Position numbers and translations under genes: made by a program. A stretch of DNA of 61,735 nt, the filler included. It is 4 parts of 4 records of this genome, joined end to end, with 100 filler letters (N's around TTAATTAATTAA, not from the genome) between each part and the next. Parts side by side here need not be neighbours in the genome. Positions count along the whole stretch, not along the records: positions 24,093 to 43,357 come from SRR22947725_1922; 3 more parts are not named here. One strand, written 5' to 3'. Shown piece by piece: positions 34,862-56,083 of the stretch. The notes below the pieces were generated by a model, which worked only from the letters and a program-made list of their open reading frames with translations, was not told the DNA's origin and ran no database searches. Positions within the stretch are counted from its first letter, which is position 1, and each line of letters opens with the position of its first letter.

Positions 34862-37384
34862 ATGAAAAACTTAAAGTTATTACTAGTCTTTATACTATTA
34901 AGCAATGTTGTAAGCAGTCAAAATTATTTCCTGGAGAATTATAAACCATATAATAATTTAATTTTATCACCAGAAGAATTTTTGGGTTACGAAATAGGAT
35001 TTCAACATACAAGACATGACCAGATTGTTAGTTACCTAACCTACTTGAGCACTGTTTCAAATAAAGCAGATTTAATTAACTATGGCAAAACGCATGAAGG
35101 AAGAAATCTTATTATTTTGACTGTCACATCTGAAAGTAATTTAAATAGATTAGATGACATCCAAAAAGAACATCTAAAAAATACAATTCCTGGAGCATCT
35201 GTTTCTTTAAATGATGATCTGCCAATTATTGTTAATCTTGGATATGGAGTACATGGAAATGAACCTTCCAGTTCAGAAGCTGCTTTACTAACCGCTTATA
35301 CACTTGTAGCGTCAAAAAATAAAAAAATTGAAAAATTTAGACAACAATCTGTTGTTTTTATTGATCCAACAATTAATCCTGATGGACGTGATAGACATAC
35401 TCAATGGGCGAATCAAAATAAATCGATTAATCTTGTAGCAGATCAATATGATTCTGAACATAATGAAGCATGGCCAAGAGGAAGAACAAATCATTATTGG
35501 TTTGATTTAAATAGAGACTGGTTATTAGCAGTTAACCCTGAAAGTCGTAATAAACTAAAATGGTTTCACACTTGGTATCCAAATGTTGTAACTGACTTTC
35601 ACGAAATGGGAACTAATAGTAATTACTTTTTTGAGCCTATGAAAACAAATGCATCAGTTAACCCATTGATTCCTGAAGAAAACTACAATGTTCTTAGTCC
35701 AAAATTTGCTGAATATTATGTTAAAGCATTGGATAGTATTGGTTCATTTTATTATACTAAAGAATCATTTGATGAAACATACCCTGGATACGGATCTTCT
35801 TATCCTGATGTTCAAGGTGGATTGGCTATATTATTTGAACAAGCTAGTTCTAGAGGGCATTTACAAGAAACAAATTATGGTACAATATCCTTTGGGTTTA
35901 CAATTAGAAATCAATATTTATCTAGCATTGCAACAGTAGAGGCTGCTGTAGATAATAAAAAAATGCTTAGAGATTATCAGAAAAGATTTTTTGATTCATC
36001 ATTAAAAGAATTTAAAGATGAAAAAATAAAAGCTTACGAATTTGGTGATTTATATGATCAAAATAGAAATAAAGCTTTTATTGATAAATTATTAGTTCAT
36101 AAAGTAAAGGTTTATAAGAATAAAGGAAAATATGTTGTTCCTGTCAATCAAACGCAATCAAGAATGGTTAAAAATTTCTTTGAAACCTATGATAAATATG
36201 TAGATAGTGTTTTTTATGATGCGTCAGCATGGAGTATGTCAAATTTCTATAATATGAAATCTAGAAAACTTAAAAACTTTACAGCTGAATCAGAGATTTT
36301 GTCAACTAATGACTTAGTGAAAAATATAAAAGTTAATAAATCTAATTACTCTTACATATTAGATTGGGACGATTATAATTCGGTAGCTGCATTAAATTAT
36401 TTACAAAAAAATAATTTAATTACATATTCTGCTTTTAAGCCATTTTCAGTAAAAGTTAATGAAACAAGTGGTATAAAAAATTTCAATTATGGATCAATTT
36501 TAATTCCCGTAAGTAAACAAAAAATATCCTCTGAAAAGTTATATGAAATAATTAAAACTGCCCAAGAAAAATTTAATGTACCAATATATAACTCTAAGTC
36601 TGGTTTTAGTATTAAAGGAATTGATTTAGGTAGTAATAATTTCAGAATCAATAAACCTGTAAAGGTTGCATTACTAATTGGAGAAGGTGTAAATTCATAC
36701 GAAGCAGGAGAAGTTTGGCATCTCATGGATACAAGAGTTGGAATGCCTATTTCAAAAATAAGGTTAAGCCAATTTAGCAGAGTTTCGTTAGATAAGTATA
36801 CTACATTAATAATGGTTTCTGGATCATACAATCAATTAGCCAAAATTGACATTGAGAAAATTAATGACTGGGTTAAAAAAGGCAATACACTTATAACGAT
36901 TGCTAAAGGATCTAGCTGGGTTATAGAAAAAGAATTAGTCAAGGAAACATTACTAGAACCAAGTAATGATTCAATTTTTTCAAGAAAAAACTATGTAAGT
37001 GCAGCAGAAAACATTGGAAGAGAAAGAATTGGTGGCGCTATTTTAAACGTTGATCTGGATTTAACCCACCCATTAGCATTTGGCTATAGAGATTCTTCAA
37101 TTCCAGTTTACAAAAACAACAATGTATTTATTAATATAACTAAGGATCATTATTCTTCAGTTGGAATTTATTCTAAAGATCCTCATATTGATGGATATAT
37201 TTCTGAAAAAAATATGAAAAATAATTTTAAAAATACTGCTTCTTTGATAGTTTCCAGATTAGGTTCTGGTAGAGTAGTAATTTTTGCTGATAATCCCAAT
37301 TTTAGAGGTTCCTGGTATGGAACTAATAAATTATTTTTGAATGCTATATTTTTTGGTGATAATATCAATGTTCCAACAAATTAA
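34862..37384 (+). CDS. zinc carboxypeptidase (M14-like) with C-terminal GATase-like domain, exported
   Basis: Signal peptide, GVHGNE, NPDGRDR, RTNHYWFDLNRDW, DFHEMG. Confidence 0.88.
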   Translation: MKNLKLLLVFILLSNVVSSQNYFLENYKPYNNLILSPEEFLGYEIGFQHTRHDQIVSYLTYLSTVSNKADLINYGKTHEGRNLIILTVTSESNLNRLDDIQKEHLKNTIPGASVSLNDDLPIIVNLGYGVHGNEPSSSEAALLTAYTLVASKNKKIEKFRQQSVVFIDPTINPDGRDRHTQWANQNKSINLVADQYDSEHNEAWPRGRTNHYWFDLNRDWLLAVNPESRNKLKWFHTWYPNVVTDFHEMGTNSNYFFEPMKTNASVNPLIPEENYNVLSPKFAEYYVKALDSIGSFYYTKESFDETYPGYGSSYPDVQGGLAILFEQASSRGHLQETNYGTISFGFTIRNQYLSSIATVEAAVDNKKMLRDYQKRFFDSSLKEFKDEKIKAYEFGDLYDQNRNKAFIDKLLVHKVKVYKNKGKYVVPVNQTQSRMVKNFFETYDKYVDSVFYDASAWSMSNFYNMKSRKLKNFTAESEILSTNDLVKNIKVNKSNYSYILDWDDYNSVAALNYLQKNNLITYSAFKPFSVKVNETSGIKNFNYGSILIPVSKQKISSEKLYEIIKTAQEKFNVPIYNSKSGFSIKGIDLGSNNFRINKPVKVALLIGEGVNSYEAGEVWHLMDTRVGMPISKIRLSQFSRVSLDKYTTLIMVSGSYNQLAKIDIEKINDWVKKGNTLITIAKGSSWVIEKELVKETLLEPSNDSIFSRKNYVSAAENIGRERIGGAILNVDLDLTHPLAFGYRDSSIPVYKNNNVFINITKDHYSSVGIYSKDPHIDGYISEKNMKNNFKNTASLIVSRLGSGRVVIFADNPNFRGSWYGTNKLFLNAIFFGDNINVPTN

Positions 37385-37394
37385 ATTTAATTAT

Positions 37395-38978
37395 ATGAAA
37401 AAATCAATATCATACATACTTGCTTTTCTATTATTCAATATTAGTTTTTCACAACTGTCTGAAATAGAAAACAAACAACATGATCAACTGATCATTAGAG
37501 GGGTAACACTCATAAATGGAGATGGATCACCACCTAGAGGACCTATTGATATAGTTGTAAGAAAAAATATTATTTCTAACATTCAAGTTGTTGGATATCC
37601 AGGAGTTGAAATTAATGAATCCAGCAGACCTAAATTAGAAAAAGGAGGTGTCGAAATTAATGCAAATGGAATGTATTTAATGCCTGGATTTATTGATATG
37701 CATGGACATATTGGTGGAGTTGCTCAAGGAGCTAGCTCTGAGTATGTATTCAAATTATGGATGGCTCATGGTGTAACCACTGTTAGGGAACCTAGCGGTA
37801 GAGGAATTGATTGGACATTGAATTTAAAGAAACTTAGTGCAGAAAATAAAATAATAGCACCAAGAATTTTTGCATATACAGGTTTTGGTCAAACTGGAAA
37901 TGATTTCAATCCATTGAACGGTGCTCCAATTAGTACTGCTGAAATGGCTAGAACTTGGGTAAGAGCTAATGCAAAAAAGGGTGCTGATGGAATTAAATTT
38001 TTTGGAGCTGAACCAGAAATTATGGCTGCAGCTTTGGACGAAAATAAAAAATTGGGGTTGGGATCTGCTTGTCATCATGCACAGTTAAGTGTTGCTAGGT
38101 GGAATGTGTTAAATTCGGCAAGAGCTGGACTAACTTCAATGGAACATTGGTATGGGTTACCTGAAGCTTTATTTACAGATAGGACTGTTCAAAATTATCC
38201 ATTAGATTATAATTATCAAAATGAGCAAGACAGATTTGAAGAAGCTGGTAAACTTTGGAAACAAGCAGCAGAACCTTATTCAAAACATTGGAATTCGGTA
38301 ATGAACGAATTAATAGAACTAGATTTCACTTTAGATCCTACATTTAATATTTATGAAGCAAGTCGAGATTTACAAAGAGCCAGAAGAGCAGAATGGCATG
38401 AAGATTATACCCTACCAACTTTATGGGAGTTTTTTGAGCCCAGTAAAATTTCACATGGGTCATATTGGCATGATTGGGGAACAGAGCAAGAAATAGAATG
38501 GAAAGAAAATTTTAGACTCTGGATGATATTTATAAATGAATATAAAAATAGAGGAGGAAGAGTAACTACAGGGTCCGACTCGGGATTTATATACCAACTA
38601 TACGGATTCGCTTACGTAAGAGAATTAGAGCTACTTAGAGAAGCTGGGTTTCATCCGCTGGAAGTTATTAGATCTGCAACTTTAAATGGAGCTGAAGCAC
38701 TAAAAATGGATGATAAAATTGGTTCTGTACAAGTTGGTAAGTATGCAGATTTAGTTATTGTTGAAGAAAACCCACTAAAGAATTTTAAAACACTTTACGG
38801 CACAGGAGCTATAAAACTTACTACTGATAACGAAGTGGTTAGAGTTGGAGGTGTTAAATATACAATTAAAGACGGGGTAGTCTATGATGCAAAGAAGTTA
38901 CTTAATGATGTAAAAAAAATGGTAGACTCTGAGAAATTAAAAACGAGTTGGAAGCTTAAACAACCTGGAGTTAATTAG
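37395..38978 (+). CDS. exported amidohydrolase family protein
   Basis: MPGFIDMHGH (HxH), GSDSG, SATLNGA, GKYADL; start placed at ATG 37395 (MKKSIS... signal peptide). Confidence 0.88.
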   Translation: MKKSISYILAFLLFNISFSQLSEIENKQHDQLIIRGVTLINGDGSPPRGPIDIVVRKNIISNIQVVGYPGVEINESSRPKLEKGGVEINANGMYLMPGFIDMHGHIGGVAQGASSEYVFKLWMAHGVTTVREPSGRGIDWTLNLKKLSAENKIIAPRIFAYTGFGQTGNDFNPLNGAPISTAEMARTWVRANAKKGADGIKFFGAEPEIMAAALDENKKLGLGSACHHAQLSVARWNVLNSARAGLTSMEHWYGLPEALFTDRTVQNYPLDYNYQNEQDRFEEAGKLWKQAAEPYSKHWNSVMNELIELDFTLDPTFNIYEASRDLQRARRAEWHEDYTLPTLWEFFEPSKISHGSYWHDWGTEQEIEWKENFRLWMIFINEYKNRGGRVTTGSDSGFIYQLYGFAYVRELELLREAGFHPLEVIRSATLNGAEALKMDDKIGSVQVGKYADLVIVEENPLKNFKTLYGTGAIKLTTDNEVVRVGGVKYTIKDGVVYDAKKLLNDVKKMVDSEKLKTSWKLKQPGVN

Positions 38979-39073
38979 CAGCAATTTTCACTGGAACAAG
39001 AAATACAGGTACAATTTTTACAATCTCCGTTTTTACATGGTTCACATGAACAAGTACAAGATAAATTTTTCAT
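38975..39073 (-). CDS. 32-aa cysteine-rich, metallothionein-like peptide (not in ORF track)
   Basis: Manual translation MKNLSCTCSCEPCKNGDCKNCTCISCSSENCC*; 10 Cys, no aromatic residue or His; fills the gap between two genes. Confidence 0.75.
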   Translation of the reverse strand: MKNLSCTCSCEPCKNGDCKNCTCISCSSENCC

Positions 39074-39106
39074 AGTAATGATTTAAATAAATTTACAAAA
39101 AATATT

Positions 39107-40030
39107 TTAAAGGGATAGCTGATCTCCAAATCTTGCAAAGTTATATCCCAACTTTGTGATACTGTCTATAGCAGAATTGTTTTCTTGTAATGAAATATTT
39201 GTGTGATTAAAATGAATGAAATATATTTTATTTTTCACTCCTTTAGATTCATTTTTAAATAAATTTAATGTTTCCTCCATAAAAGGATGAGGAATCTCAT
39301 CCATAGATCTATCCACCTCTCCATCTTTAAAAAATGTAGCGTCTAAAAAGGCATAATCTACATCTTTAACTTCATTTATTATGTCTTTATTCCATAAATT
39401 CCATTTGTTAATATCAGGTATAAATAATGCAGACTTGTTGGGTCCCATTATTTTATACCCAACTGTTTCAGAAAACTCATCCCTGTGTGGAACCGTAAAT
39501 GGAACAATTTTTAAATTATTAGAAATTGAGATTTTTTCATTATTAAATATTTCAGTTAAATGAATATTCTTGAGATCAATCAATTGATTCCATGGACTAT
39601 TTGATTCAAGAAAAATTTTCATTTTAGGCATAACGTATACTGGAACTTTGTAAGCCCCCAAAGCCTCTCTTCCAAAGTACATTAAACCAGTGTAGTGTCC
39701 AATATGTGCATGAGTAATAAAAACTCCGTCGATTATAGTAGAAGAATTATTCTTATTTTTTAAAAACTTTAATTGCATACTAATATCTGGTGTTGCCTCT
39801 AATAAATAAGATTTATTATCAACTAAATCGGTTACACCTAGACTAGTTACAAAGTTTAGAGCTTTTGAATTAAAATTTTTGTTGCAACAAAATTTTTCAC
39901 ACCCAATGTGTGGATAGCCAGCATCTTGCACATTACCTAAAACAGTAATAAACTGATTAGGTAGTTCCTGTTTTACACATGAAAAAAAAGTTAGAGATAT
40001 AAATAGAAATAAGTATATAAGTTTATTCAA
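39107..40030 (-). CDS. PqqB-like metallo-beta-lactamase fold lipoprotein
   Basis: LGNVQDAGYPHIGCEKFCC, EATPD, THAHIGHY, VPHRDEFSETVGY, FIPDI, DATF, FIHFNHTN; FFSC lipobox; TTG start. Confidence 0.82.
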   Translation of the reverse strand: MNKLIYLFLFISLTFFSCVKQELPNQFITVLGNVQDAGYPHIGCEKFCCNKNFNSKALNFVTSLGVTDLVDNKSYLLEATPDISMQLKFLKNKNNSSTIIDGVFITHAHIGHYTGLMYFGREALGAYKVPVYVMPKMKIFLESNSPWNQLIDLKNIHLTEIFNNEKISISNNLKIVPFTVPHRDEFSETVGYKIMGPNKSALFIPDINKWNLWNKDIINEVKDVDYAFLDATFFKDGEVDRSMDEIPHPFMEETLNLFKNESKGVKNKIYFIHFNHTNISLQENNSAIDSITKLGYNFARFGDQLSL

Positions 40031-40043
40031 AATAATTATTTAA

Positions 40044-40871
40044 TCAATTTATAGATGATAAAATATCTTCCATTTGGGATTGAATTTCTTGAGCATTTTT
40101 AGCAGCATATATATCAAAATTAGTGTCATTAGAAGCATAAATAATTGACCTGGACGAATTGATTAAAAGCCCAACTTCATTATTCAAACCATTATCACAA
40201 ACTTCTTTTAAATCCCCTCCTTGAGCACCAACTCCAGGAATTAACAGAAAATTATTTGGCACTATATTTCTAATTTCCTTTAAATAAGAGGCCTTTGTAG
40301 CACCTACTACATACATTAATTGATTGGAGTTTTTCCAGCTAGTACTTGTTCTTATAACCTCTTCATAAAGCTTTTTAGAATTATCTGCTATATTTTTTGT
40401 TTGAAAATCGAATGCACCAACGTTGGATGTTAACGCTAAAATAATAGTATGTTTATTTTGATATTCTAAAAATGGTTCGACAGAATCTTTTCCCATGTAA
40501 GGATTAATTGTAATACTGTCAAAATTAAGAGTTTCAAAATATGCTTTTGCATACATGGAACTTGTATTACCAATATCTCCTCTTTTAGCATCAGCAATTG
40601 TAAATATCTCTGGGTAATAGGAGTTTATGTAATTAATTGTTTTTTCAAGAGCTTTCCAGCCATTTAAACCCAAAGATTCATAAAACGCTATATTTGGTTT
40701 GTAAGCAACACAATAAGAATTGGTAGCATCAATAATTTTTTTGTTAAATTCAAAAATAGGATCATCTGTATCTAATAAAAATTTAGGTATTTTATTTATA
40801 TCAGTATCAAGACCAATACATAAAAAAGATTTTTTTCTTTTTATTTGACTTATTAAATCCTCTTTTTTCAT
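40044..40871 (-). CDS. pyrF: orotidine-5'-phosphate decarboxylase
   Basis: LCIGLD, YKPNIAFYE, DAKRGDIGNTS, VVGAT, PGVGAQGG, INSSRSIIYA. Confidence 0.96.
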   Translation of the reverse strand: MKKEDLISQIKRKKSFLCIGLDTDINKIPKFLLDTDDPIFEFNKKIIDATNSYCVAYKPNIAFYESLGLNGWKALEKTINYINSYYPEIFTIADAKRGDIGNTSSMYAKAYFETLNFDSITINPYMGKDSVEPFLEYQNKHTIILALTSNVGAFDFQTKNIADNSKKLYEEVIRTSTSWKNSNQLMYVVGATKASYLKEIRNIVPNNFLLIPGVGAQGGDLKEVCDNGLNNEVGLLINSSRSIIYASNDTNFDIYAAKNAQEIQSQMEDILSSIN

Positions 40872-41948
40872 CTAAATATTTTCATTACTAGCTTTTAATA
40901 TTTCCGTATTCTCAGCTAACATTAATTCGTCAACAATTTTTTGAATATCTCCATTAATTATGTTGGAAAGATCATATAAAGTTAAACCAATTCTGTGGTC
41001 AGTAACTCTTCCTTGCGCATAGTTGTATGTTCTAATTTTAGCACTTCTGTCCCCAGTTGAAACCATACTTTTCCGCTTTTCAGAATCTGCTGCTTGCTTT
41101 TTTGCTAATTCAATTTCATACAATCTTGATCTCAGAACCTTTAAAGCTTTTTCTAAATTCTTATGAGATGATTTTTGATCCTGACAACTTACTATCATTC
41201 CTGTAGGTTCATGGTGTAGCTTTATAGCTGAATAGGTTGTATTGACAGACTGACCTCCGGGTCCTGTTGAGGTTGTTCTTTCAATTCTAACGTCTTGCAT
41301 ATTTAATTCAACATCAAACTCTTCAGCTTCTGGTAAAACAATAACTGAAGCAGCACTTGTATGTACCCTTCCTTGAGTTTCCGTTTGAGGGACTCGTTGA
41401 ACTCTGTGAACACCAGCTTCAAACTTTAATGTTCCATAGACTTCAGCTCCTGAAACCTCAAATATAATTTCTTTGTAACCTCCAGATGTACCTTCGTTAT
41501 AATCAACTAAATTAATTGTCCAGCCCCTGCCTTCGCAATATTTCGTGTACATTCTATATAAATCTCCGGCAAAAATACTCGCTTCGTCACCTCCAGCACC
41601 AGCTCTTAATTCAACAACTACATTTTTAGCATCATCTGGGTCTTTTGGAATTAACAACACTTTGATTTCTTCTTCAATTTTAGGTATTTCTTTTTTAGCT
41701 TCATCTAATTGAAGCTTAGCCATTTCTATCATTTCTGGATCTTTTTCGTTGGATATTATTTCTTCTGCTTCTGAAATATTATCTAAAAGAGACTTATAAA
41801 CTTCTCCAATATCAACAATGGTCTTTATGTCTTTATATTCTTTAGTTAATTGAACATATTTTTTTTGATCAGAAATAATATCAGGTTGAATTATAAGGTC
41901 GTTCAACTCATCAAATCTCTGATTTACTATATTTATTTTTTGTAACAT
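40872..41948 (-). CDS. prfA: peptide chain release factor 1
   Basis: [12 protein letters not shown] (PxT), [23 protein letters not shown]. Confidence 0.96.
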
Positions 41949-43357: not shown

Positions 43358-43457
43358 NNNNNNNNNNNNNNNNNNNNNNNNNNNNNNNNNNNNNNNNNNN
43401 NTTAATTAATTAANNNNNNNNNNNNNNNNNNNNNNNNNNNNNNNNNNNNNNNNNNNN
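43358..43457. other. artificial contig linker N44-TTAATTAATTAA-N44
   Basis: Identical 100-bp spacer; base composition changes visibly across it. Confidence 0.97.
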
Positions 43458-43639
<182 letters not shown>

Positions 43640-43656
43640 CTAATTAATGCGCTGTT

Positions 43657-44133
43657 TTAGAATCTAAAATGTGAAAATGCTTTGTTGGCTTCTGCCATCT
43701 TATGCGTGTCAACACGTTTTTTAACGGCTCCACCCTCTTCTTTTTCAGCAGCTAAAATTTCAGAAGCTAACTTTAAAGCCATGGATTTTTCATTACGCTT
43801 GCGTGAGTAACTAATTAACCATTTCATAGCCATTGAAATTTTACGGTCTGGACGAATTTGCATCGGTATTTGGAAGGTAGCCCCTCCTACACGACGGCTA
43901 CGCACCTCTACGTGTGGCATAACATTAGAAAGAGCGTCTTTCCATACTTGGAGTGCATCTTTCTCATCGTCTTGTTTTTTGGCGTCAACAATATCGATGG
44001 CGTCATAAAATATTGTAAAAGCAACAGATTTTTTTCCGCTCCACATTAAGTTGTTCACAAAACGGGTAACCAGTTGGTCATTGAATCGCGGGTCGGGAAG
44101 TAAAGGGCGTTTTTTCGCCTTTCTTTTTCTCAT
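43657..44133 (-). CDS. rpsG: 30S ribosomal protein S7
   Basis: [42 protein letters not shown]. Confidence 0.98.
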
Positions 44134-44191
44134 ATTCTTGTTTTGAGTGGTTCAAGCTCGCTTGAACGTCATGTTACATTATCGCTACTTG

Positions 44192-44566
44192 CTATTTTTT
44201 TGGTCGCTTGGCGCCATACTTTGAGCGGCGTTGCAAACGGCCTTCAACACCTGCGGTGTCAAGTGCACCACGAACGATGTGGTACCGTACTCCTGGTAAA
44301 TCTTTTACACGACCACCACGTACAAGCACAATTGAGTGCTCTTGGAGGTTGTGTCCTTCACCTGGGATATAGGCATTTACCTCATTTCCATTAGTAAGAC
44401 GAACCCGAGCCACCTTCCGCATTGCGGAATTTGGTTTTTTAGGGGTCGTGGTATATACTCGTGTACATACTCCACGACGCTGTGGACATGAATCCAAAGC
44501 GGCAGATTTACTCTTTTTAACGAGGTCCTTACGGCCTTTGCGAACTAGTTGCGATATGGTTGGCAT
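44192..44566 (-). CDS. rpsL: 30S ribosomal protein S12
   Basis: [45 protein letters not shown]. Confidence 0.99.
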
Positions 44567-44603
44567 ACGTTATACTTGCTTTATTCCTTTATTTAAAGGG
44601 CTG

Positions 44604-44611
44604 CAAATGTA
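44604..44611 (-). promoter_or_regulatory. Bacteroidetes -7 element of the str operon
   Basis: Minus strand TACATTTG(C), 38 bp upstream of the rpsL ATG. Confidence 0.65.
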
Positions 44612-44742
44612 ATATAATTTTCCACTTCTTCAAACATAGACTCGTATTTTTTCTCCAAGATTTTGACAAGATAAATTATGATAGGCCACAGCGATGATCA
44701 AAATCTTGACAACAGCTGTTATGGAAATCCGTTTACACAACG

Positions 44743-44750
44743 TAATTTTG
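44743..44750 (+). promoter_or_regulatory. Bacteroidetes -7 element for menF
   Basis: TAATTTTG(C) ending 43 bp before ATG 44793. Confidence 0.55.
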
Positions 44751-44792
44751 CAGAAGTCTTACAGTACAATTTGACACTACCAATAGTGTATA

Positions 44793-45839
44793 ATGCATAA
44801 ACATAAAAAGGATTTTTTTGCGCGTTTCCGCACCCTTCAAGAGGAAGAACTTCCGTTTGTAGTGTATAGGTTGCCCCTAGGCAATGAGTTAATTGTAGCA
44901 CAGCAAAAGACAGCTGAAACAACCTATACTGATACGCTTAATGAAGAAGGTTTTGTTTTTGCACCATTTGAACACGTCAATGAACATATATATATACCCA
45001 GCACCAAAAGCGAGAGTTTCGACATACCTCCCCAAACAGTAAGGATTACGCCTGCAACGAGTGCTACTAGCGAACAGGAAAAAGCAACCTACACCAAACT
45101 TGTATCCCAAGCCAAAGAAACCATTGCGGAAACATCCCTTCAAAAAGTAGTCGTTTCCAGAAAACAGGAAGGACTATGTCAGGAAGCGATTGTGGAAAGT
45201 TTTGTTCGGCTGGTACACACCTACCCCAATGCCATGGTGTATTATTGGTCGCACCAAGAAACAGGGAATTGGATAGGGGCTACTCCCGAAACACTTTTGG
45301 ATATTCAAGAAGGTATATGCAAGACTATGGCCTTAGCTGGTACGCTTCCTTACCAGAAAAATACCTCCCCGACTTGGGGCGCCAAAGAGCGCTCAGAACA
45401 GATGCTCGTGTCTGATTTTATTCAAAATCGATTGCAAACCTTGCTACCTAAATCAGAAGTTTCTAAATCCGAGGTTCAAAATAAGCGAGCAGGGAATCTT
45501 GTACACCTGTGTACACATTTTGAGTTTCCTCTTGAGTCGCTTACCCCCTTGCAAATAACAAAACTCCTCCACCCTACACCTGCCGTTGCAGGAGTTCCCG
45601 TTGAAGACAGCATTGTCTTTATAAACGAAACCGAAACACATGAGCGAAAGTACTACACAGGATTTATGGGGCCTATTGGAAGCAATACCCTAAAGCTATT
45701 TGTCAATTTACGTTGTGCCCAAGTACAAGACAGAAATATAACGCTGTATATTGGTGGGGGGATAACAGCTGAAAGCGATGTAGAAAAGGAATGGCTTGAA
45801 AGCCAACGAAAAACCGAAACGCTCTTGAACGTTTTGTGA
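44793..45839 (+). CDS. menF: isochorismate synthase
   Basis: KVVVSR, WIGATPETL, TMALAGT, WGAKERSEQ, LHPTPAVAG, LFVNLRC, GGGIT; heads the men cluster. Confidence 0.88.
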   Translation: MHKHKKDFFARFRTLQEEELPFVVYRLPLGNELIVAQQKTAETTYTDTLNEEGFVFAPFEHVNEHIYIPSTKSESFDIPPQTVRITPATSATSEQEKATYTKLVSQAKETIAETSLQKVVVSRKQEGLCQEAIVESFVRLVHTYPNAMVYYWSHQETGNWIGATPETLLDIQEGICKTMALAGTLPYQKNTSPTWGAKERSEQMLVSDFIQNRLQTLLPKSEVSKSEVQNKRAGNLVHLCTHFEFPLESLTPLQITKLLHPTPAVAGVPVEDSIVFINETETHERKYYTGFMGPIGSNTLKLFVNLRCAQVQDRNITLYIGGGITAESDVEKEWLESQRKTETLLNVL

Positions 45840-45873
45840 ACACCCAGCACTAGTACACTCGTTTCCTCTTTTG

Positions 45874-45881
45874 TACCTTTG
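45874..45881 (+). promoter_or_regulatory. Bacteroidetes -7 element for menD
   Basis: TACCTTTG(C) between menF and menD. It argues against the ORF-track TTG start at 45871. Confidence 0.55.
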
Positions 45882-45915
45882 CGTTGCTATGAATGCCGAG
45901 GACACCTCAAAACAA

Positions 45916-47682
45916 ATGCGTCACACCAAAATTCCGCTGCCTCAAGCTGTTGTATTTTATTGTGCACAGTTTAACATTAAACATGTTGTTATTTCACCTG
46001 GTTCGAGAAATGCACCCCTAACCAATGGCTTTGTTGAAAATTCCTATTTCACAACTTATAGTATCGTTGATGAACGAGCTGCTGCCTTTTTTGCATTAGG
46101 CATTGCACAACAAGATAAACACCCTGTAGCATTGGTATGTACTTCAGGGTCAGCATTATTAAACTATTACCCTGCCGTAGCCGAGGCTTATTACAGCGAA
46201 ATCCCGCTTGTAATTTTATCAGCTGATCGTATGCCGCACCGCGTGGATATTGGTGATGGACAAACGATCCAGCAAGAAGGCGTCTTTGGACCTCACTTAA
46301 TAAGTGCTGCCGCACTAAAGCCTGATGTAGTACACGCAACCAAAAGCCTACTCGCAAGCAACAAACAAACTTATTTTGACTCAAATCCGTCCAAGGAGGA
46401 CATTCTGGTATTACAAGAAAAGCATCAAAAACATAATATTGCAGAACTTCAGCGAATCCTTTCGCTCGCTTGTACATCTAAGGGACCTGTACATTTAAAT
46501 ATTCCAATCGAGGAGCCTTTGTACGAAATGACCACGAGGCCACTTTCGTTACCCAAAGCTGCTATCATTGAAAAAGAGACGTACAACGTAGATACTGCTG
46601 CTTTACTAACTGCATGGAAACAAGCATCTCGTAAAATGATATTGATTGGTGTATCTAGTCCTGATGCTGAATTTAACAAGACCATTAACCAGCTTCTTGA
46701 AGATCCTAGTGTAGTGGTACTCACTGAAAAAACCTCCAATTTTACACATCCAAAAGCCATTGATGCCATTGATTGTTTGATGGCTCCATTAGAATTGGAG
46801 CAAAATAACAAGGAAGACGGGCTAAAACCCGAATTGCTAATTACCATTGGAGGAATGGTTGTTTCAAAAAAAATTAAATTCTATTTACGAAAACATCCCG
46901 CTGCGCAACATTTTCATGTTGATACTACAAGAGCTAACGACACCTTTTATTATCTAACACAACACATTGAAGCCCCTACAAATATTTGTCTGGAAGTTGT
47001 GATCAAGCTTCCCAAAACTGCGAGCAGCTATCAGGAAAATGTTTTAAAGCAATATCATGCCTATTTAGAAAAAGGAAAAACATACCTGAAAAATATTCCT
47101 TTTTCTGATTTGGCCGCCTTTAAACGCATCTCATCCGCACTGCCACCAAACACTCACCTTCAAGTAGCCAACAGCTCTCCTATTCGCTACGTGCAATTAT
47201 TCGATTTACCTAAGGGCACTGAAATATACAGCAACCGTGGTACAGCAGGAATAGACGGGAGTACTGCAACGGCAATGGGAGCCGCACAAATCAATCCAAA
47301 GCAACCCGTTTTGATCACGGGAGATTTGAGTTTTTTCTATGATATCAATGGACTGTGGCACAACTACATTCCCAATAATGCCCGAATTATCATAATAAAC
47401 AACCAAGGAGGGGGAATCTTTAGAATTCTGCCAGGAGAAAAAGACAGCCCCAAATACGACACCTATTTTGAAACGACTCACAATCGAAACGCCCGTGCTC
47501 TAGCAAAAAACTTTGGGCTTCAATACAAACGTGTAAAAACAGCGTGGGGACTTCAACGTGCACTAATGCCCTTTTTTAAGGCTTCAAAAACAGCAAAAAT
47601 TTTAGAAATTTGCACACCACGAAAAAGCAACGATGCCGTGCTACTTAATTATTTTAAAGCCATGGCGAACACAAAAAAATAA
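45916..47682 (+). CDS. menD: SEPHCHC synthase
   Basis: VISPGSRNAPL, VDERAAAFFALG, CTSGSA, GPVHLNIP, NRGTAGIDG, GDLSFFYD, NNQGGGIF; start at 45916 (alternative 45889). Confidence 0.95.
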   Translation: MRHTKIPLPQAVVFYCAQFNIKHVVISPGSRNAPLTNGFVENSYFTTYSIVDERAAAFFALGIAQQDKHPVALVCTSGSALLNYYPAVAEAYYSEIPLVILSADRMPHRVDIGDGQTIQQEGVFGPHLISAAALKPDVVHATKSLLASNKQTYFDSNPSKEDILVLQEKHQKHNIAELQRILSLACTSKGPVHLNIPIEEPLYEMTTRPLSLPKAAIIEKETYNVDTAALLTAWKQASRKMILIGVSSPDAEFNKTINQLLEDPSVVVLTEKTSNFTHPKAIDAIDCLMAPLELEQNNKEDGLKPELLITIGGMVVSKKIKFYLRKHPAAQHFHVDTTRANDTFYYLTQHIEAPTNICLEVVIKLPKTASSYQENVLKQYHAYLEKGKTYLKNIPFSDLAAFKRISSALPPNTHLQVANSSPIRYVQLFDLPKGTEIYSNRGTAGIDGSTATAMGAAQINPKQPVLITGDLSFFYDINGLWHNYIPNNARIIIINNQGGGIFRILPGEKDSPKYDTYFETTHNRNARALAKNFGLQYKRVKTAWGLQRALMPFFKASKTAKILEICTPRKSNDAVLLNYFKAMANTKK

Positions 47683-47688
47683 AGAACT

Positions 47689-48504
47689 ATGAGAAACTGG
47701 GAAACAATAAAAGAATACAGTGATATCCGCTTTGAGTTTTATGAAGGCATTGCCAAAATAACGATTGATCGTGAGGCGGTTTACAACGCTTTTAGACCTG
47801 AAACCAACAACCAAATGCTGGAGGCTATGGATGTTTGTCGTGAGCGTGAAGATATTGATGTCATCGTTTTTACAGGAGCTGGAGAAAAAGCTTTTTGTAG
47901 CGGTGGTGATCAGAATGTAAAAGGAGTAGGCGGTTATATTGGAGAAGATGGCGTACCACGACTCAACGTATTGGATTTGCATAAAAAAATTCGTGAGATC
48001 CCCAAGCCGGTAGTTGCTATGGTCAATGGCTATGCCATTGGGGGCGGACACGTACTTCATGTGGTGTGTGACCTAACTATCGCAAGTGAAAATGCCATTT
48101 TTGGACAAACAGGTCCCAAAGTAGGAAGCTTTGATGGCGGATTTGGATCATCGTATTTGGCGCGTCACGTGGGACAGAAAAAAGCCCGAGAAATTTGGTT
48201 TTTATGCCAACAATACTCCGCTCAAGAAGCACTAGACATGGGACTAATCAACAAAGTAGTGCCCTTAAAAAACTTGGAAGACACCGTAGTGGAATGGTGT
48301 CAGATCATGCAACAACGTAGCCCACTTGCCCTACGTATGATAAAGCGTTGTATGAATGCCGAACTAGATGGGCAGCATGGTTTAATGCAACTTGCAGGCG
48401 ATGCCACATTGATGTATTACCTTATGGATGAAGCTCAAGAAGGGAAAAATGCCTTTTTAGAAAAACGAGCGCCTAACTTTAAGCAATTCCCTAAGTTTCC
48501 ATAA
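47689..48504 (+). CDS. menB: 1,4-dihydroxy-2-naphthoyl-CoA synthase
   Basis: [48 protein letters not shown]. Confidence 0.97.
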
Positions 48505-49419
48505 GTGAACAAACCCAGCCTGTTTCGTGTTTGGATTCAAGCGGCGCGTTTGCGCACCCTTCCACTTTCTGTGGCTGGGATTCTAACAGGCAATACACTT
48601 GCGTTATACAGTGCTGGATTTTCATGGGTTGTTTTTGCTGGTACGCTACTGACGGCTGTTTGTTTTCAAATCCTTTCAAATTTCGCCAACGATTATGGCG
48701 ACGGCATTAAGGGGACTGATAATGAATCACGTATAGGGCCCAAACGTGTGTTACAACAAAACTTACTATCCCCATCGGCATTGTTTCGTGGTATCGTAGT
48801 TACAGGAATTATAGGCATGCTTTTATCTGCTGTAACGATTGGTACTGCTTTCGGAATCGATCAGTTACTCCCTAGTGCCATATTTCTATTACTTGCGCTT
48901 GCTGCCATATGGGCGGCTTATCGATACACTGCGGGTAATAGGGCCTACGGGTATCGCGCTTTGGGCGATGTGTTTGTGTTGCTATTTTTTGGGCTGTTGG
49001 CTGTTTTGGGGAGTCATTTTTTACAAACAAAAACGTTATCCCTTACAAGTCTTTGGTTTGCCCTTGCAATTGGAGGATTGAGTGTTGGTGTGCTTAACCT
49101 AAACAATATGCGAGATATGGAAAATGATACCGCAATGGGCAAAAAAACAATCGCTGCCATTCTAGGGCTAGCAAAAGCCAAACGCTACCATGCCTTTGTC
49201 CTCTTTCTAAGCATGCTTGCCTTAGCGCTCGGACTTGCAGAAACGGCAAAAAACAATGTTCAATTACTCCCCATAATAATCGTTATTCCCGTAGCGCTAC
49301 AACTGCGAAAAACCCTTAACACTACAAGTTTTGCTTTGTTTGATGCACAATTAAAACCTTTAGCGCTTGCTACTTTTTTGTTAAGTATCTTGTTGTTTAT
49401 AACTCAATTCATACAGTAA
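48505..49419 (+). CDS. menA: 1,4-dihydroxy-2-naphthoate prenyltransferase
   Basis: AARLRTLPLS, NFANDYGDGIKGTD, YGY..LGD, LNLNNMRD..ND...GKKT; GTG start. Confidence 0.95.
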   Translation: MNKPSLFRVWIQAARLRTLPLSVAGILTGNTLALYSAGFSWVVFAGTLLTAVCFQILSNFANDYGDGIKGTDNESRIGPKRVLQQNLLSPSALFRGIVVTGIIGMLLSAVTIGTAFGIDQLLPSAIFLLLALAAIWAAYRYTAGNRAYGYRALGDVFVLLFFGLLAVLGSHFLQTKTLSLTSLWFALAIGGLSVGVLNLNNMRDMENDTAMGKKTIAAILGLAKAKRYHAFVLFLSMLALALGLAETAKNNVQLLPIIIVIPVALQLRKTLNTTSFALFDAQLKPLALATFLLSILLFITQFIQ

Positions 49420-50450
49420 TGGAAGCCCGTTTTAAAAAACATGTATTGAATTTTAAACGCCCTAGTGGAACGTCACGGGGGGTGTTGCGCCAAAAAGAAA
49501 GTTATTTTATTGAATTACGAAAAGGAACACAAGTTGGTATTGGCGAATGCGGTTTACTTCGTGGGTTAAGCATTGATGATGTACCTGAGTACGAAGATCA
49601 ACTGACTACCGTTTGCGCTGCGTTAACCCAAGAAAAAGACACCACGGCGCTGTGTGAGAACTTTCCGTCCATTCAAATGGGGGTTGAAATAGCACTCAGA
49701 TCGTTGGATTCTAAAACACCATTTTCGTTATTCCCATCTAGCTTTTCAGAAGGAAAAGAACCCATTCCCATCAATGGGCTGGTATGGATGGGATCACTCG
49801 ATTTTATGCGCGAACAAGTCTTTGAAAAAATAGCTGCAGGGTTTAAGTGCATCAAGCTTAAAATTGGCGCTCTAGACTTTAGTAAGGAGTGTCAATTACT
49901 CGCTGATATCCGTGCGCGCTACTCTGCCAAGGAGTTGACAATCCGCGTAGATGCCAACGGTGCTTTTTCTCCAACCGAAGCACAATCAAAACTACAAATA
50001 TTAGCTGGATTTGACCTTCATTCAATAGAGCAGCCCATTGCCTCAGGGCAACAAAATGAACATGCAAAACTCTGTGCCAATACACCAATTCCCATTGCGC
50101 TAGACGAAGAACTTATTGGCGTAAAATCACTGAAAGCAAAGGCACAATTGCTAGATACCATAAAGCCACAGTTTATTATTTTAAAACCGAGTCTGCTCGG
50201 AGGTTTTGCTGCTTCTGAGTCTTGGATTCGTTTGGCAGAAGAACGCAACATCGGCTGGTGGGTTACCAGTGCCCTTGAAAGTAATATCGGTCTAAATGCC
50301 ATCGCACAGTGGTGCGCCACCCTAAACACCACCACTCCTCAAGGATTGGGTACGGGAAGCTTGTTCACAAACAATATCAGTAGCCCGTTAGTGGTAGAAA
50401 AAGGCGTGCTTCGTTATGACAACATTGTAACATGGGAATATCCCTTTTAG
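49419..50450 (+). CDS. menC: o-succinylbenzoate synthase
   Basis: KLKIG, RVDANG, IEQP, ALDEEL, ILKPS, SALES; enolase superfamily, in men context. Confidence 0.92.
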   Translation: MEARFKKHVLNFKRPSGTSRGVLRQKESYFIELRKGTQVGIGECGLLRGLSIDDVPEYEDQLTTVCAALTQEKDTTALCENFPSIQMGVEIALRSLDSKTPFSLFPSSFSEGKEPIPINGLVWMGSLDFMREQVFEKIAAGFKCIKLKIGALDFSKECQLLADIRARYSAKELTIRVDANGAFSPTEAQSKLQILAGFDLHSIEQPIASGQQNEHAKLCANTPIPIALDEELIGVKSLKAKAQLLDTIKPQFIILKPSLLGGFAASESWIRLAEERNIGWWVTSALESNIGLNAIAQWCATLNTTTPQGLGTGSLFTNNISSPLVVEKGVLRYDNIVTWEYPF

Positions 50451-50452
50451 CC

Positions 50453-51520
50453 ATGCAGCGCCTTCATCCACAATTTTGTCTCAATGGAGCATCCCATGAC
50501 ACCAAAACTCTTGGCGCAGCAGCGCAAGTTTGGATAAATGATGTCGATGCGGAAACACATGCATTAGGCACATTTATTCTTGAATGGTTGTCAGATGACA
50601 GCACGGTATCGCTCCAAACCTCGGGTTCTACAGGAATTCCAAAACAATTGGAGGTTACAAAAACTTCTATGCGTGAATCGGCACAGCGAACAGCTGCTTT
50701 TTTTGCGCTCAAGCCAGGTGACACTGCCCTACTGTGTTTACCAGTACGCTATATTGCTGGTAAAATGATGCTCGTTCGGGCTATGACTCTTGGACTATCT
50801 TTAGACGTGCTAGCCCCTAAAACCATGCTTGAGTTAAACGGAAAATCATATGATTTCGCTGCACTGATTCCGCTACAAGCACAACAAAATTCAGCGCAAT
50901 TAAAACGCTTTAAAACAATCCTTATTGGAGGGGCACCTATAAACACCAAACTCAGGAAAGTACTTGCTGCCATTGATGCAAATTGTATTGAAACCTATGG
51001 GATGACTGAAACCCTAACCCATGTGGCAACACGTCCTATTACCTACCCTCCTGCTGCCTTTCGGGCAATGCCAGGAATTGGAATAGCAATAGACTCCAAT
51101 AACTGCTTGGTATTGAACGTACCATACGCATCCCCATCTCCTATAATAACACAGGATGTGGTTAAGCTGGTAGCCAAAGATTCGTTTGAGTTATTGGGAC
51201 GCAAGGATTGGGTTATTAATTCGGGCGGTAAGAAAATAATTCCTGAGCAGCTTGAAGAAGCTTTAGGCACTGAACTCTCAATCCCCTTCTTTTTTACAAG
51301 TTTCCCAGATAAAAATCTTGGGGAGCAATTGGTATTGGTAGCCGAAGCGCCCACAACTCAAACTGATGCATTGCTGACGATGACACAATCGGTATTGGGA
51401 GCAGATAAGTACCATATTCCCAAACGTGTGATTTGCTTGGATATATTTGTATATACTGATACAGGAAAACTAGACCGGAAGGCGACAAAAAAAAAGGCAT
51501 TCGCCATTTGCGACGTATAA
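50453..51520 (+). CDS. menE: o-succinylbenzoate--CoA ligase (short Bacteroidetes type)
   Basis: QTSGSTGIPK, YIAGKMMLVRA, LIGG, ETYGMTET, LGRKDWVINSGG, TGKLDR; start at ATG 50453. Confidence 0.88.
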   Translation: MQRLHPQFCLNGASHDTKTLGAAAQVWINDVDAETHALGTFILEWLSDDSTVSLQTSGSTGIPKQLEVTKTSMRESAQRTAAFFALKPGDTALLCLPVRYIAGKMMLVRAMTLGLSLDVLAPKTMLELNGKSYDFAALIPLQAQQNSAQLKRFKTILIGGAPINTKLRKVLAAIDANCIETYGMTETLTHVATRPITYPPAAFRAMPGIGIAIDSNNCLVLNVPYASPSPIITQDVVKLVAKDSFELLGRKDWVINSGGKKIIPEQLEEALGTELSIPFFFTSFPDKNLGEQLVLVAEAPTTQTDALLTMTQSVLGADKYHIPKRVICLDIFVYTDTGKLDRKATKKKAFAICDV

Positions 51521-51533
51521 ATACTCCAATTTC

Positions 51534-51550
51534 TTAACAGTTCATTAACA
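51534..51550 (+). promoter_or_regulatory. TTAACA-N5-TTAACA direct repeat upstream of the SusC-N chimera gene
   Basis: TTAACAgttcaTTAACA, 11-bp period; the same motif occurs at 55018-55034. Confidence 0.45.
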
Positions 51551-51705
51551 AAAAAAAGGGTTTATAATTTTAGTGAATAAAATTTTTACATAATTCACAA
51601 ATAATGCCTGTTTTTTTACGAAAACCCTACGAATACACTCCTTTTGGCTTTGTGATTTAAAAATGGCTTAGCACCTTGTCTAGCATAAACCAAAATCATA
51701 ATCAT

Positions 51706-52785
51706 ATGAACTATATACGACATATAGGTGTGCTTCTTCTAGCACTCATGAGTACAACGGCATGGTCACAATCCATATCGGGTACCGTAACCGACGAAAA
51801 CAACCAACCACTGCCTGGAGCTACTGTACTTGTACAGGGTACCACTCGCGGTGTCTCATCAGACTTTGATGGGAGGTATCTAATTAATGCAAGCCAAGGG
51901 GAAACACTAGAGTTTAGCTTTATTGGCTATGCCACGCAAAGTGTTGTAGTAAGTGCAGCCACGCATGATGTCCAATTGAATCTGGATAATGAATTGGAAG
52001 AAGGAATAGTTCCGAACATGACAAAAGATGCCTCAACCGATGCGTTTTTGGATTTGTTAAAAATTACTGATGGTGATGATATTAGTATTTCTTTTAATGC
52101 TTCGGTTGCACAAGGAGTTCCTAAATCAACTGACATTGTAGGGGTATACAGAACAATAACGGGCAACGTTTATAATGCAACACTGTTTAGTAATGCTACA
52201 TTACCTGAAACTTTCACAATATCTGTTTCTGACATTGTAGCAGCTTTTGCAGAAATAAATACAGCTAGTGATATCTTGTTGGGAGATGTTTTATCAATTA
52301 CAACTTCTTTTACTAGATCAGACGGAGCAATTTTAAATATTATCAATATAGATGGGACTAAAAACTATAGCGATAATATTAAAAATTCAGGAATTGTCAC
52401 TGTAGTGGTAGACTATCCTGTTTCGTGTCCATCAGATATCGGCGGTACTTATTTAGTGTCTAGCACAGGAACTGGGTGCTGCGGTGTTCCGCCAATAACG
52501 AATCATATGTACACGGTTACTGTAACCGATAATGGAGGAGGTTCTTATTCTTTATCCGATTATTCGGGTGGTGTATATGATGGTCTGTTCTGTGGTCCGT
52601 TTGGTATTTGTGCTGATGCTTCGACTGGAGACATAACAGACGTTTGTGGAACTTTAAGTGGAAAAAATGCAGATTGTTGTGGCGATGAAATTGAATTTTC
52701 AGGAACAGTAAACGTAGATGGTACTTGGTCGGTAGAAATTGCAAGTGGTTTTGCAGATGCCACTTCTACTTGGACTAAACAATAA
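51706..52785 (+). CDS. exported protein: SusC-type N-terminal extension (CarboxypepD_reg-like) fused to an unrelated Cys-containing beta-rich region
   Basis: Signal peptide, then ISGTVTDENNQPLPGATVLVQGT..GVSSDFDGRY...FSFIGY. No plug or barrel follows. Start at ATG 51706. Confidence 0.75.
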   Translation: MNYIRHIGVLLLALMSTTAWSQSISGTVTDENNQPLPGATVLVQGTTRGVSSDFDGRYLINASQGETLEFSFIGYATQSVVVSAATHDVQLNLDNELEEGIVPNMTKDASTDAFLDLLKITDGDDISISFNASVAQGVPKSTDIVGVYRTITGNVYNATLFSNATLPETFTISVSDIVAAFAEINTASDILLGDVLSITTSFTRSDGAILNIINIDGTKNYSDNIKNSGIVTVVVDYPVSCPSDIGGTYLVSSTGTGCCGVPPITNHMYTVTVTDNGGGSYSLSDYSGGVYDGLFCGPFGICADASTGDITDVCGTLSGKNADCCGDEIEFSGTVNVDGTWSVEIASGFADATSTWTKQ

Positions 52786-52813
52786 CCAATAAGGTTGTTT
52801 TATTACAAATTAT

Positions 52814-52839
52814 AAACCCCGCACTTAGCGGGGTTTTTT
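52814..52839 (+). terminator. intrinsic terminator
   Basis: AAACCCCGC-ACTTA-GCGGGGTTT followed by a T run. Confidence 0.85.
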
Positions 52840-52852
52840 ATACCTTACACAG

Positions 52853-54841: not shown

Positions 54842-55017
54842 TGTAGATAACATATTTTTAAGACGTTTTATTTCTATTTTTTAGTTATTCAGTTTTGCTT
54901 AATTACATCAAAATAGACGGTTTAAATAACTTTGACAGGCCTTAAAACATAGTATTTAAGCCTGTTAGACTCTTTATTTGAGAAAATATTTTTTATGTAA
55001 AAAAAATTCTTTCAGAA

Positions 55018-55034
55018 TTAACATTTTTTTAACA
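55018..55034 (+). promoter_or_regulatory. TTAACA-N5-TTAACA direct repeat upstream of susC
   Basis: TTAACAtttttTTAACA ending 30 bp before the ATG. Confidence 0.45.
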
Positions 55035-55063
55035 TCTTTGTTTTTGCTAACAATCAAACAATT

Positions 55064-55983
55064 ATGAAAACTAAATTTATTCAAATTTTAACACTGTGTC
55101 TTATTTCAGTGTTTCAGGTTGCCATAGCTCAACAGACAGTTACAGGATCTGTAACGGATCAGGATGGATTACCAATCCCTGGTGCCACTGTTGTTCTTAA
55201 AGGAACCGCCACTGCCACAAGTACTGACTTTGATGGTAACTTCGCAATTCTCGCTGACAATGGAACTACTTTAGTAGCTAGTTATGTGGGGTATACTGCT
55301 GTTGAGGTTTCTGTTAACGCTACCGTAATAAACATAGCGCTTGAAAGCTCTACGGTTCTTGACGAAGTATTTGTTACTGGATATGGAACACAACGCAAAT
55401 TAGAACTAACCGGTTCTGTTGGGAAAATTGATGCTGAAGTACTTGACAAGGCAAGAAATCCAAACGTATTACAATCTGCTGTTGGAAAAGTTGCTGGTGT
55501 ACAAGTATTTAGTAATAGTGGTCAACCAGGATCAGGTCCAACCGTAAGAATTCGGGGGATTGGCTCACTATACGCATCTAGTTCTCCGCTATACGTTGTA
55601 GATGGCGTGCCTTTTAATGGGGCAATTAACTCTATCAATCCGCAAGATATTGGCTCTATCACTTTCCTTAAAGATGCATCAGCTGTATCCATATATGGTA
55701 GTAGAGGATCTAACGGAGTTGTTATCATTACAACAAAATCTAGTAAAGAAGGTGGTATCAAGGCTACGCTCGATTATAGTGCATCAGTTTCAACGCGTGC
55801 AACTAAAGATTACGATCGTATCATGAATCCGGGAAGATACTATGAAGGCTTTTTCATGGTTTCTAGAAACACCCTTATGCATGATTTTGGATACAGCGAT
55901 GCTAATGCAAGACTTGCAGCTGCTCAAAACCTAATTATTGATACGGATGGACTTGGATATTCTTTAGGGTACAATGCATATGG
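55064..55983 (+). CDS. SusC/RagA family TonB-dependent receptor, N-terminal part (truncated by the gap)
   Basis: N-terminal extension, LDEVFVTGYG, plug motifs GQPGSG..VRIRG, PLYVVDGVP, INPQDI..LKDASAVSIYGSRGSNGVVIITTK. Confidence 0.95.
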
Positions 55984-56083
55984 NNNNNNNNNNNNNNNNN
56001 NNNNNNNNNNNNNNNNNNNNNNNNNNNTTAATTAATTAANNNNNNNNNNNNNNNNNNNNNNNNNNNNNNNNNNNNNNNNNNNN
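55984..56083. other. artificial contig linker N44-TTAATTAATTAA-N44
   Basis: Identical 100-bp spacer. Confidence 0.97.

Follow-up and report, generated by a model that had tools for sequence, protein, structure and literature searches.

The DNA stretch analysed here (the window; 61,735 nucleotides, with the filler between its four joined parts included) encodes, within the part taken from record SRR22947725_1922, a peptide of 32 residues with ten cysteines, which is best read as a metallothionein-like binder of Zn, Cd or Cu, with a probability of roughly 0.7. An initial annotation of the window had proposed a conserved, undescribed metallothionein-like peptide, and this proposal is supported by the conservation of the gene, by its composition and by its link, in related genomes, to a sigma factor of the SigZ/ECF238 type with a Cys-rich tail (ECF, extracytoplasmic function). 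The peptide has the low mass, the very high Cys content in CxC and CxxC motifs and the paucity of aromatic residues by which metallothioneins are operationally recognized.

The peptide and its family

Translation of positions 38975-39073 on the minus strand gives MKNLSCTCSCEPCKNGDCKNCTCISCSSENCC, followed by a stop codon. It contains neither His nor aromatic residues, and its Cys residues stand at positions 6, 8, 10, 13, 18, 21, 23, 26, 31 and 32 (31% Cys). The open reading frame (ORF) starts 33 nt past the stop of a PqqB-like gene of the metallo-beta-lactamase (MBL) fold on the same strand, and its stop overlaps that of a convergent amidohydrolase gene by 4 nt (Table 1). Length, composition, Cys pattern and the co-directional placement 33 bp downstream of the MBL gene had all been given by the initial annotation, and translation and coordinates agree with it. 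Its ten-Cys pattern ending in x4-CC is present in the window, but represents a derived loss, since all 31 sigma-linked copies found in relatives have eleven Cys; compared with the family consensus, one Cys (C28) and two tail residues are gone from the window peptide. When the low-GC part of the window (43 kb) was simulated with a Markov model, none of 100 runs yielded ten Cys in a stop-free stretch of 32 residues; the maximum was eight, reached once.

A search with the single peptide matched 43 of 301 genomes of the family at E<=0.1. A profile of 31 rows of this form of the peptide, called type I here (profile A1), matched 46 of them at E<=0.001, which is about 15% of the sampled Flavobacteriaceae; one weak match (G304, E 6e-4), in which the Cys pattern is absent, was set aside, so that 45 copies remain. 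Against 401 genomes of the phylum, profile A1 gave five matches, all in the same family. The named records include Gelidibacter salicanalis (PAMC21136), Polaribacter marinus (MSW13), Leptobacterium flavescens (KCTC 22160) and metagenome-assembled genomes (MAGs) of Flavobacteriaceae and Flavobacteriales, and in one MAG record (L092) the peptide is identical to that of the window. An eight-Cys codon pattern searched in GTDB and viral contigs mostly retrieved simple repeats; among the matches listed, 10 of 309 in-frame ones are real type I genes, from Flavobacteriaceae or Flavobacteriales wherever named.

The type I consensus reads CxCxCxxC-x2-G-x-CxxCxCxxCxCxxCxC, with about 33 residues and 11 Cys. 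Single copies have 30-36 residues and 10-11 Cys (31-33%), with four aromatic residues in 1481, while the 31 sigma-linked copies hold four His and three aromatic residues in 1031. Furthermore, Lys exceeds Arg in the peptide composition (76 vs 6). An identical or almost identical Cys spacing was also seen on two viral contigs, in the C-terminal tails of prohead proteases of phages, one of the Clp type (L277:868-1683, plus; 27.5 bits to profile A1) and one of the S78 type (L299:214-660, minus; 17.1 bits), as a metallothionein-like module fused to capsid-maturation proteases.

With the single peptide as query, a phmmer search of 1.84 billion 50% representatives, insensitive for 32 residues, gave no match at E<=0.001, and an exact look-up of ten member peptides (six type I, four of the type II described below) found none in a collection of 15 billion proteins, probably because gene callers skip ORFs of this kind. 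Foldseek with the AlphaFold2 model of the peptide returned no match. Searches of the open-access literature brought up no description of the peptide family or of an ECF238-controlled metallothionein; the supplements of PMC11705764 (over 500 mined metallothioneins), which could list a member, are outside this scope.

As an alternative, the initial annotation had considered the precursor of a ribosomally synthesized and post-translationally modified peptide (RiPP), for example of the ranthipeptide or sactipeptide kind. A short Cys-rich ORF would fit, and one stand-alone copy (L038) is followed 34 nt downstream by a radical S-adenosylmethionine gene with a CxxxCxxC motif, which we take to be HemW-like. 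This is the only such neighbour among the 45 copies, however, and no conserved maturase, protease or exporter stands beside them; the first Cys is residue 3-7, so there is no leader region. A RiPP precursor is thus hardly credible.

A coding gene under selection

The nearest genome (G001) and its genus, nine genomes that are 58-85% complete, served as comparison set for the window lineage. When 41 relatives were searched at the DNA level, the entire region was found in eight of these nine. At all eight congener loci the ORF is intact, eight Cys are invariant and length changes amount to 3 or 6 nt, that is whole codons. Within a core of 21 codons, the proportion of synonymous differences (pS) exceeds that of non-synonymous ones (pN) in 27 of 28 congener pairs (mean 0.35 vs 0.10); among the 45 family copies this holds for 983 of 990 pairs (0.71 vs 0.26), the pairs being drawn from kin genomes and hence not independent. 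Variable core columns are distributed over the codon positions as 3/6/11 in the congeners and 13/13/21 in the 45 family copies, and both TGT and TGC are used in each of the eight core Cys columns of the latter. Non-coding conservation was rejected, since the variation lies mostly at third codon positions. Judged by these sequence comparisons, the ORF codes for a protein and is under purifying selection that acts on its Cys residues. The initial annotation had named conserved Cys spacing, mostly synonymous substitution and an undisrupted frame as checks, and each of them came out in its favour, the frame in 8/8 congener loci.

The SigZ-like partner and a sister module

In 31 of the 46 type I matches, the peptide gene lies directly upstream of a SigZ-like gene on the same strand, at a distance of 40-270 nt. 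SigZ-like matches number 82, in 72 of the same 301 genomes; two of them (G155, G241) were not recovered, and 80 sigmas were examined, 31 with a type I peptide and 16 with a type II peptide of 37-41 residues and 14-15 Cys. Four partner sigmas were tested against profile models, and the top matches were SigZ models for all of them (155-178 bits), the TIGR02959 cut-off of 168.65 being exceeded by one of the four. H91, C96, C154, C155, C175 and C178 are invariant in the type I sigmas (18/18), and the Cys tail carries a CC and a CxxC motif.

A quick maximum-likelihood tree was built for 80 sigmas, three from outside the sample, leaving out the truncated rows L401, L361 and L370. Support is given as the Shimodaira-Hasegawa-like approximate likelihood ratio (SH-aLRT). 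Sigmas accompanied by a type I peptide group in a single clade (33/33 rows, SH-aLRT 97), which is sister (88) to a clade (99) where 15 of 16 sigmas have a type II peptide. The sole type II-clade sigma without a peptide (L354, in G159) has an apparent tRNA gene directly upstream, by sequence reading. Type II peptides occur at L353 and L355-L369 (16 loci) and, in a second family of the phylum, at L432-L438, where four of seven loci lack the sigma. Profile-profile comparison gives a likeness of the two peptide types at 84% probability. Both modules have the same architecture, sister sigma clades and related promoters, and both are orphaned in some genomes, whereas type II (14 Cys in 37 residues) differs in Cys spacing and number and has the -35 element TGTATC instead of TGCRTC. 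Two small Cys-rich ORFs beside other sigmas, one downstream at L060 (45 residues) and one upstream at L385 (59 residues, CC-rich), are unrelated to either type; the one at L060 has its own promoter copy.

By the reclassification of ECF sigmas, SigZ and CorE2 belong to ECF238, whose short Cys-rich tail is thought to mediate activation by metal (bioRxiv 2019.12.11.873521; PMC8999054 section 3.5.1, as far as these were accessible). What activates the SigZ-type members is called a long-standing enigma in the supplement of PMC7826278, which describes no conserved promoter for the group. An unannotated ORF of 33 codons would presumably have escaped that analysis.

The close pairing raises the question of whether the peptide might instead be a small Zn- or redox-sensing anti-sigma factor or co-regulator that binds the adjacent sigma. 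Genes of anti-sigma factors usually adjoin their ECF gene, and the peptide is strictly paired with the sigma clade and has diverged along with it, two sister sigma clades having two peptide types. Against this, the peptide is kept under purifying selection without a sigma in 14 of the 45 type I copies (orphans); in G308, G102 and G104 the sigma was deleted in place and the peptide kept. The same holds for the four type II copies of the second family, and within the genus of the window the cognate sigma was found in 0/9 genomes (58-85% complete) and the peptide in 8/9; the best sigma matches there are generic ECFs of 55-60 bits which end before the Cys tail. Furthermore, the peptide has almost no hydrophobic residues and lacks the HxxxCxxC motif, the signature of zinc-binding anti-sigma (ZAS) factors. 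Finally, ECF238 is described as a group that has no anti-sigma factors (PMC7826278, supplement). An anti-sigma role is therefore considered improbable.

Promoters, hairpin and candidate regulon

Within 100 nt of the peptide start, 30 of the 31 sigma-linked copies show the elements TGCRTC and GTCT separated by 17-19 nt, as compared to 0/14 orphans. Type II copies have a TGTATC...GTCT promoter. We infer that the TGCRTC...GTCT promoter is read by the adjacent sigma. Between peptide and sigma, the stop codon of the peptide is followed by a stable hairpin (26 of 31 linked copies at z<-2, median -4.3).

Of the 20 type I genomes scanned, 18 have a site in front of the peptide, and in five of five type II genomes the peptide promoter is the only site, so that the regulon appears minimal. 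The type I scans gave ten other sites, two of which belong to a second SigZ/arsM locus; three of the ten were inspected, one lying before a cation diffusion facilitator (CDF) gene and two apparently in coding sequence. The former, in G204, is a perfect type I site with the same 17-nt spacing just upstream of a His-rich ZitB-like CDF transporter gene (L347:591-1484, minus), next to a resistance-nodulation-division (RND) adaptor gene. In G208, a CDF gene is located within the operon-like run of the peptide.

SigZ-like genes without a peptide (L063, L064, L065, L073, L084, L371, L376, L384, L388) have TGCRTC...GTC downstream, before genes for ArsM, ArsI/CadI and other proteins; ArsM (309 bits) and ArsI/CadI (117.8 bits) both score above the cut-off. 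This suggests an arsenic-responsive SigZ regulon in Flavobacteriaceae. A variant of the metallothionein reading, not exclusive of it, would be that the peptide is a sponge for arsenite, antimonite or mercury in a SigZ-controlled arsenic response, in line with the near-identical promoters of these other clades and with the CC motif common to the sigma tails. In the loci of 3-16 kb that were read, however, neither type I nor type II units were seen to have an arsenic gene beside them; the one additional site of equal spacing that was inspected stands before a CDF gene, and the peptide-linked sigmas have an additional CxxC that is absent from most arsenic-linked ones. This variant is decidedly unlikely.

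In the orphans another element is found. A TAnnTTTR box at -40 to -8 occurs in 10 of 14 orphans, in 0/31 linked copies and in 15% of shuffles. It is similar to TAnnTTTG, the -7 box of Flavobacterium and Bacteroides (PMC7641319, in the part accessible). In the window, a putative housekeeping -7 box of the Bacteroidota kind lies in the gap upstream of the peptide (Table 1), and its GTAnnTTT is kept in 8/8 congener loci. Expression of the peptide in the window lineage is probably constitutive.

Neighbouring genes and history of the locus

Table 1. Features around the peptide gene, in positions of the window.
Feature	Position	Strand	Remark
Metallothionein-like peptide (type I family)	38975-39073	minus	32 residues, 10 Cys; 11 Cys in sigma-linked relatives
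Putative housekeeping -7 box TAAATTTA (TAnnTTTA)	39088-39095	minus	in the 33-nt gap; candidate promoter element
PqqB-like hydrolase, metallo-beta-lactamase fold	39107-40030	minus	Lactamase_B_2; TIGR02108 76 bits, below the cut-off of 245
Amidohydrolase	37341-38978	plus	convergent with the peptide
Peptidase M14 protein	34862-37384	plus	syntenic marker of the ancestral locus
pyrF (orotidine monophosphate decarboxylase) and release-factor gene	40044-41948	minus	upstream syntenic markers

The gene order in the window is prfA, pyrF, pqqB-like, peptide, amidohydrolase, M14, where the release-factor gene is presumably prfA-like. Another small genome, G208, has the order of the window plus the CDF gene. 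In G286 the order is prfA, pyrF, pqqB-like, mutase, peptide, sigZ, orf131, lrp, amidohydrolase, M14, and G128 is alike; in these two genomes, the amidohydrolase orthologue follows sigZ-orf131-lrp, about 1.6 kb past the peptide, and in sigma-linked relatives the PqqB-like gene is 4.5-7 kb away from the peptide. From this comparison of gene orders the window is seen as a collapsed locus, in which deletions on both sides took the mutase, sigma, 131-aa ORF and Lrp genes, and spared the 99 bases of the peptide.

The four flanking metal-dependent hydrolases listed by the initial annotation (M49, M14, amidohydrolase and MBL) are as described. The meaning that it attached to this metallohydrolase neighbourhood is not upheld: these are ordinary ancestral neighbours drawn together by deletions. 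A functional hydrolase cluster was rejected on account of the synteny with the ancestral locus, and because other stand-alone copies sit among unrelated genes.

Further along, the GC content of the window rises from about 0.30 to 0.37-0.43 at positions 43458-55983, between the runs of N at 43358-43457 and 55984-56083, and is lower again afterwards; this part may be a contig of another organism that was joined in.

Proposed mechanism and its assessment

The peptide would be a cytoplasmic, His-free, single-domain metallothionein-like protein that normally serves both as output and as feedback sink of a metal-sensing sigma factor. In the ancestral two-gene unit, the peptide comes first, followed by the sigma of the SigZ/ECF238 type. 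A soft metal would bind to the Cys tail of the sigma, as in CorE and CorE2, and the metal-bound sigma would then transcribe the peptide-sigma unit, while the hairpin may keep the peptide mRNA in excess. By wrapping the metal in a thiolate cluster, the peptide would turn the sigma off again and close the loop. The form with eleven Cys matches the Zn4/Cd4-Cys11 stoichiometry of the alpha-domain (Zn4Cys11 in the accessible part of PMC10243857), and the ten-Cys form of the window would fit three to four divalent ions or several Cu(I). After the loss of the sigma, the peptide of the window lineage may act as a constitutive metal buffer or store. Concerning the metal itself, our own estimate favours Zn or Cd, as a tentative choice a little short of even odds; Cu(I) is doubtful, As(III), Hg or other soft ions are unlikely, and any other metal is improbable.

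A thiol redox buffer, or a store of Fe-S or sulfur, could also draw on the ten or eleven free thiols that the 33 residues provide, and such a role would suit the persistence of the peptide in small genomes from the sea, where an excess of toxic metal may seldom occur. The Cys spacing, which is fixed across 45 copies, suggests a defined cluster instead, and the partner sigma comes from a metal-responsive group, both of which make this role very improbable.

Several observations weigh against the metallothionein reading with its sensor-sink loop. Neither Pfam nor NCBIfam contains a family that matches the peptide at E<=10, metallothionein models included, and PDB sequences gave no match to profile A1 or to profile A2. 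In the Atlas, a PF02067 cluster came up as a weak lead, with scores of 0.79-0.80 that are within the range of shuffled proteins, and the AlphaFold2 model of the metal-free peptide is poor, with a predicted local distance difference test value (pLDDT) of 68 and a predicted template modelling score (pTM) of 0.34. The kinship of the genomes behind the pS and pN pairs has been mentioned. On the side of regulation, the supplement of PMC7826278 describes ECF238 as not autoregulated and, outside subgroup s2, without conserved context, which contradicts the promoter proposed here. The link to CDF transport is based on one promoter-bearing genome of the 20 scanned and one adjacency, and the TAnnTTTR box is missing from the searched interval in 4 of 14 orphans. 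Nine RNA-labelled runs contain the stretch of the window, as assembled contigs that are thus unable to show transcription. Two of them (X1, X2) have flat depth across the whole 2.1 kb in one piece, which is DNA-like and may be the source, and two others (X7, X12) cover the peptide ORF and end at 39128 and 39121, at best a weak hint of transcription.

Taken further, the data would allow a wider, tentative proposal with somewhat less than even chances: a new class of bacterial metallothionein, all-Cys and single-domain (M4Cys11), of about 33 residues and with eukaryote-like chemistry, that forms an autoregulated two-gene sensor-sink loop with a Cys-tailed ECF sigma. Streamlined marine flavobacteria would have lost the sensor more than once and put the peptide under a housekeeping promoter instead, yielding a constitutive trace-metal store in seawater. 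If true, the SigZ side of ECF238 would gain from this class a target gene, a promoter and a probable signal. The peptide unit would offer a direct test of SigZ-type ECF238 activation, with promoter, target and a natural sigma-less control lineage in hand. That the peptide outlasted the deletions to either side of it, in genomes of 1.1-1.7 Mb (incomplete assemblies), hints that abundant marine flavobacteria have a need for metal buffering. In addition, an all-Cys metal binder of 33 residues may serve as a small model system in studies of cluster chemistry and biosorption.

Comparison with known systems

The partner sigma resembles CorE and CorE2 of Myxococcus xanthus and SigZ of Bacillus subtilis in its short Cys-rich C-terminal tail and in having no anti-sigma factor. 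A CxC motif within the linker that joins sigma2 and sigma4 is given as a CorE-like feature (PMC8999054, in the part accessible). The linker of the partner sigma, unlike that of the CorE-like group (former ECF44), has no CxC and contains H-x4-C (H91, C96), which places it on the former ECF24/SigZ side. A term search in the accessible text of the CorE2 paper (PMC4937300) finds no mention of metallothionein; a metallothionein target and an autoregulated promoter are proposed for the partner sigma and are not found in the ECF238 and CorE2 text covered.

Characterized bacterial metallothioneins are few and largely of cyanobacterial, pseudomonad or mycobacterial origin (PMC13578184, in part). SmtA/BmtA and PflQ2MT of Pseudomonas share with the peptide the small size, the Cys-rich CxC and CxxC motifs, the preference for Lys over Arg and, given the putatively metal-sensing sigma of its relatives, the position beside a metal-sensing regulator. 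In contrast, SmtA/BmtA-type proteins have about 60 residues with about 16% Cys (Table 1 of PMC13578184), compared with 30-36 residues and 31-33% Cys here, and their regulator is an ArsR/SmtB or Zur protein, whereas that of the relatives is an activating ECF sigma. The peptide is essentially devoid of His and aromatic residues, which the accessible part of PMC10612145 calls common in bacterial metallothioneins. No profile match to the BmtA/SmtA family was obtained, and length, Cys share and the His-containing hydrophobic zinc-finger core differ.

MymT of Mycobacterium tuberculosis is a small Cys-rich bacterial metal sponge, as is proposed for the peptide, and is controlled by the metal sensor RicR (PMC10141476, in part). 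Here, no Pfam or NCBIfam match to MymT was found, the Cys spacing differs and the regulator is a sigma factor rather than RicR (for MymT, see the accessible parts of PMC10141476 and PMC11672702).

According to the text available from the DeepMetagenome study, bacterial and environmental metallothioneins favour His, and Cys-dominated ones are eukaryotic (PMC11705764). PF02067 (metallothionein family 5) gave no hidden Markov model match to the peptide. The alpha-domain of mammalian metallothionein (Zn4Cys11) and the short all-Cys metallothioneins of animals and fungi come close in ligand set, with Cys as the only ligand, eleven Cys and about 30 residues. There is no sequence match to these proteins and the CC pairs of the peptide occur only at its tail, so that the likeness is one of composition and could be convergent.

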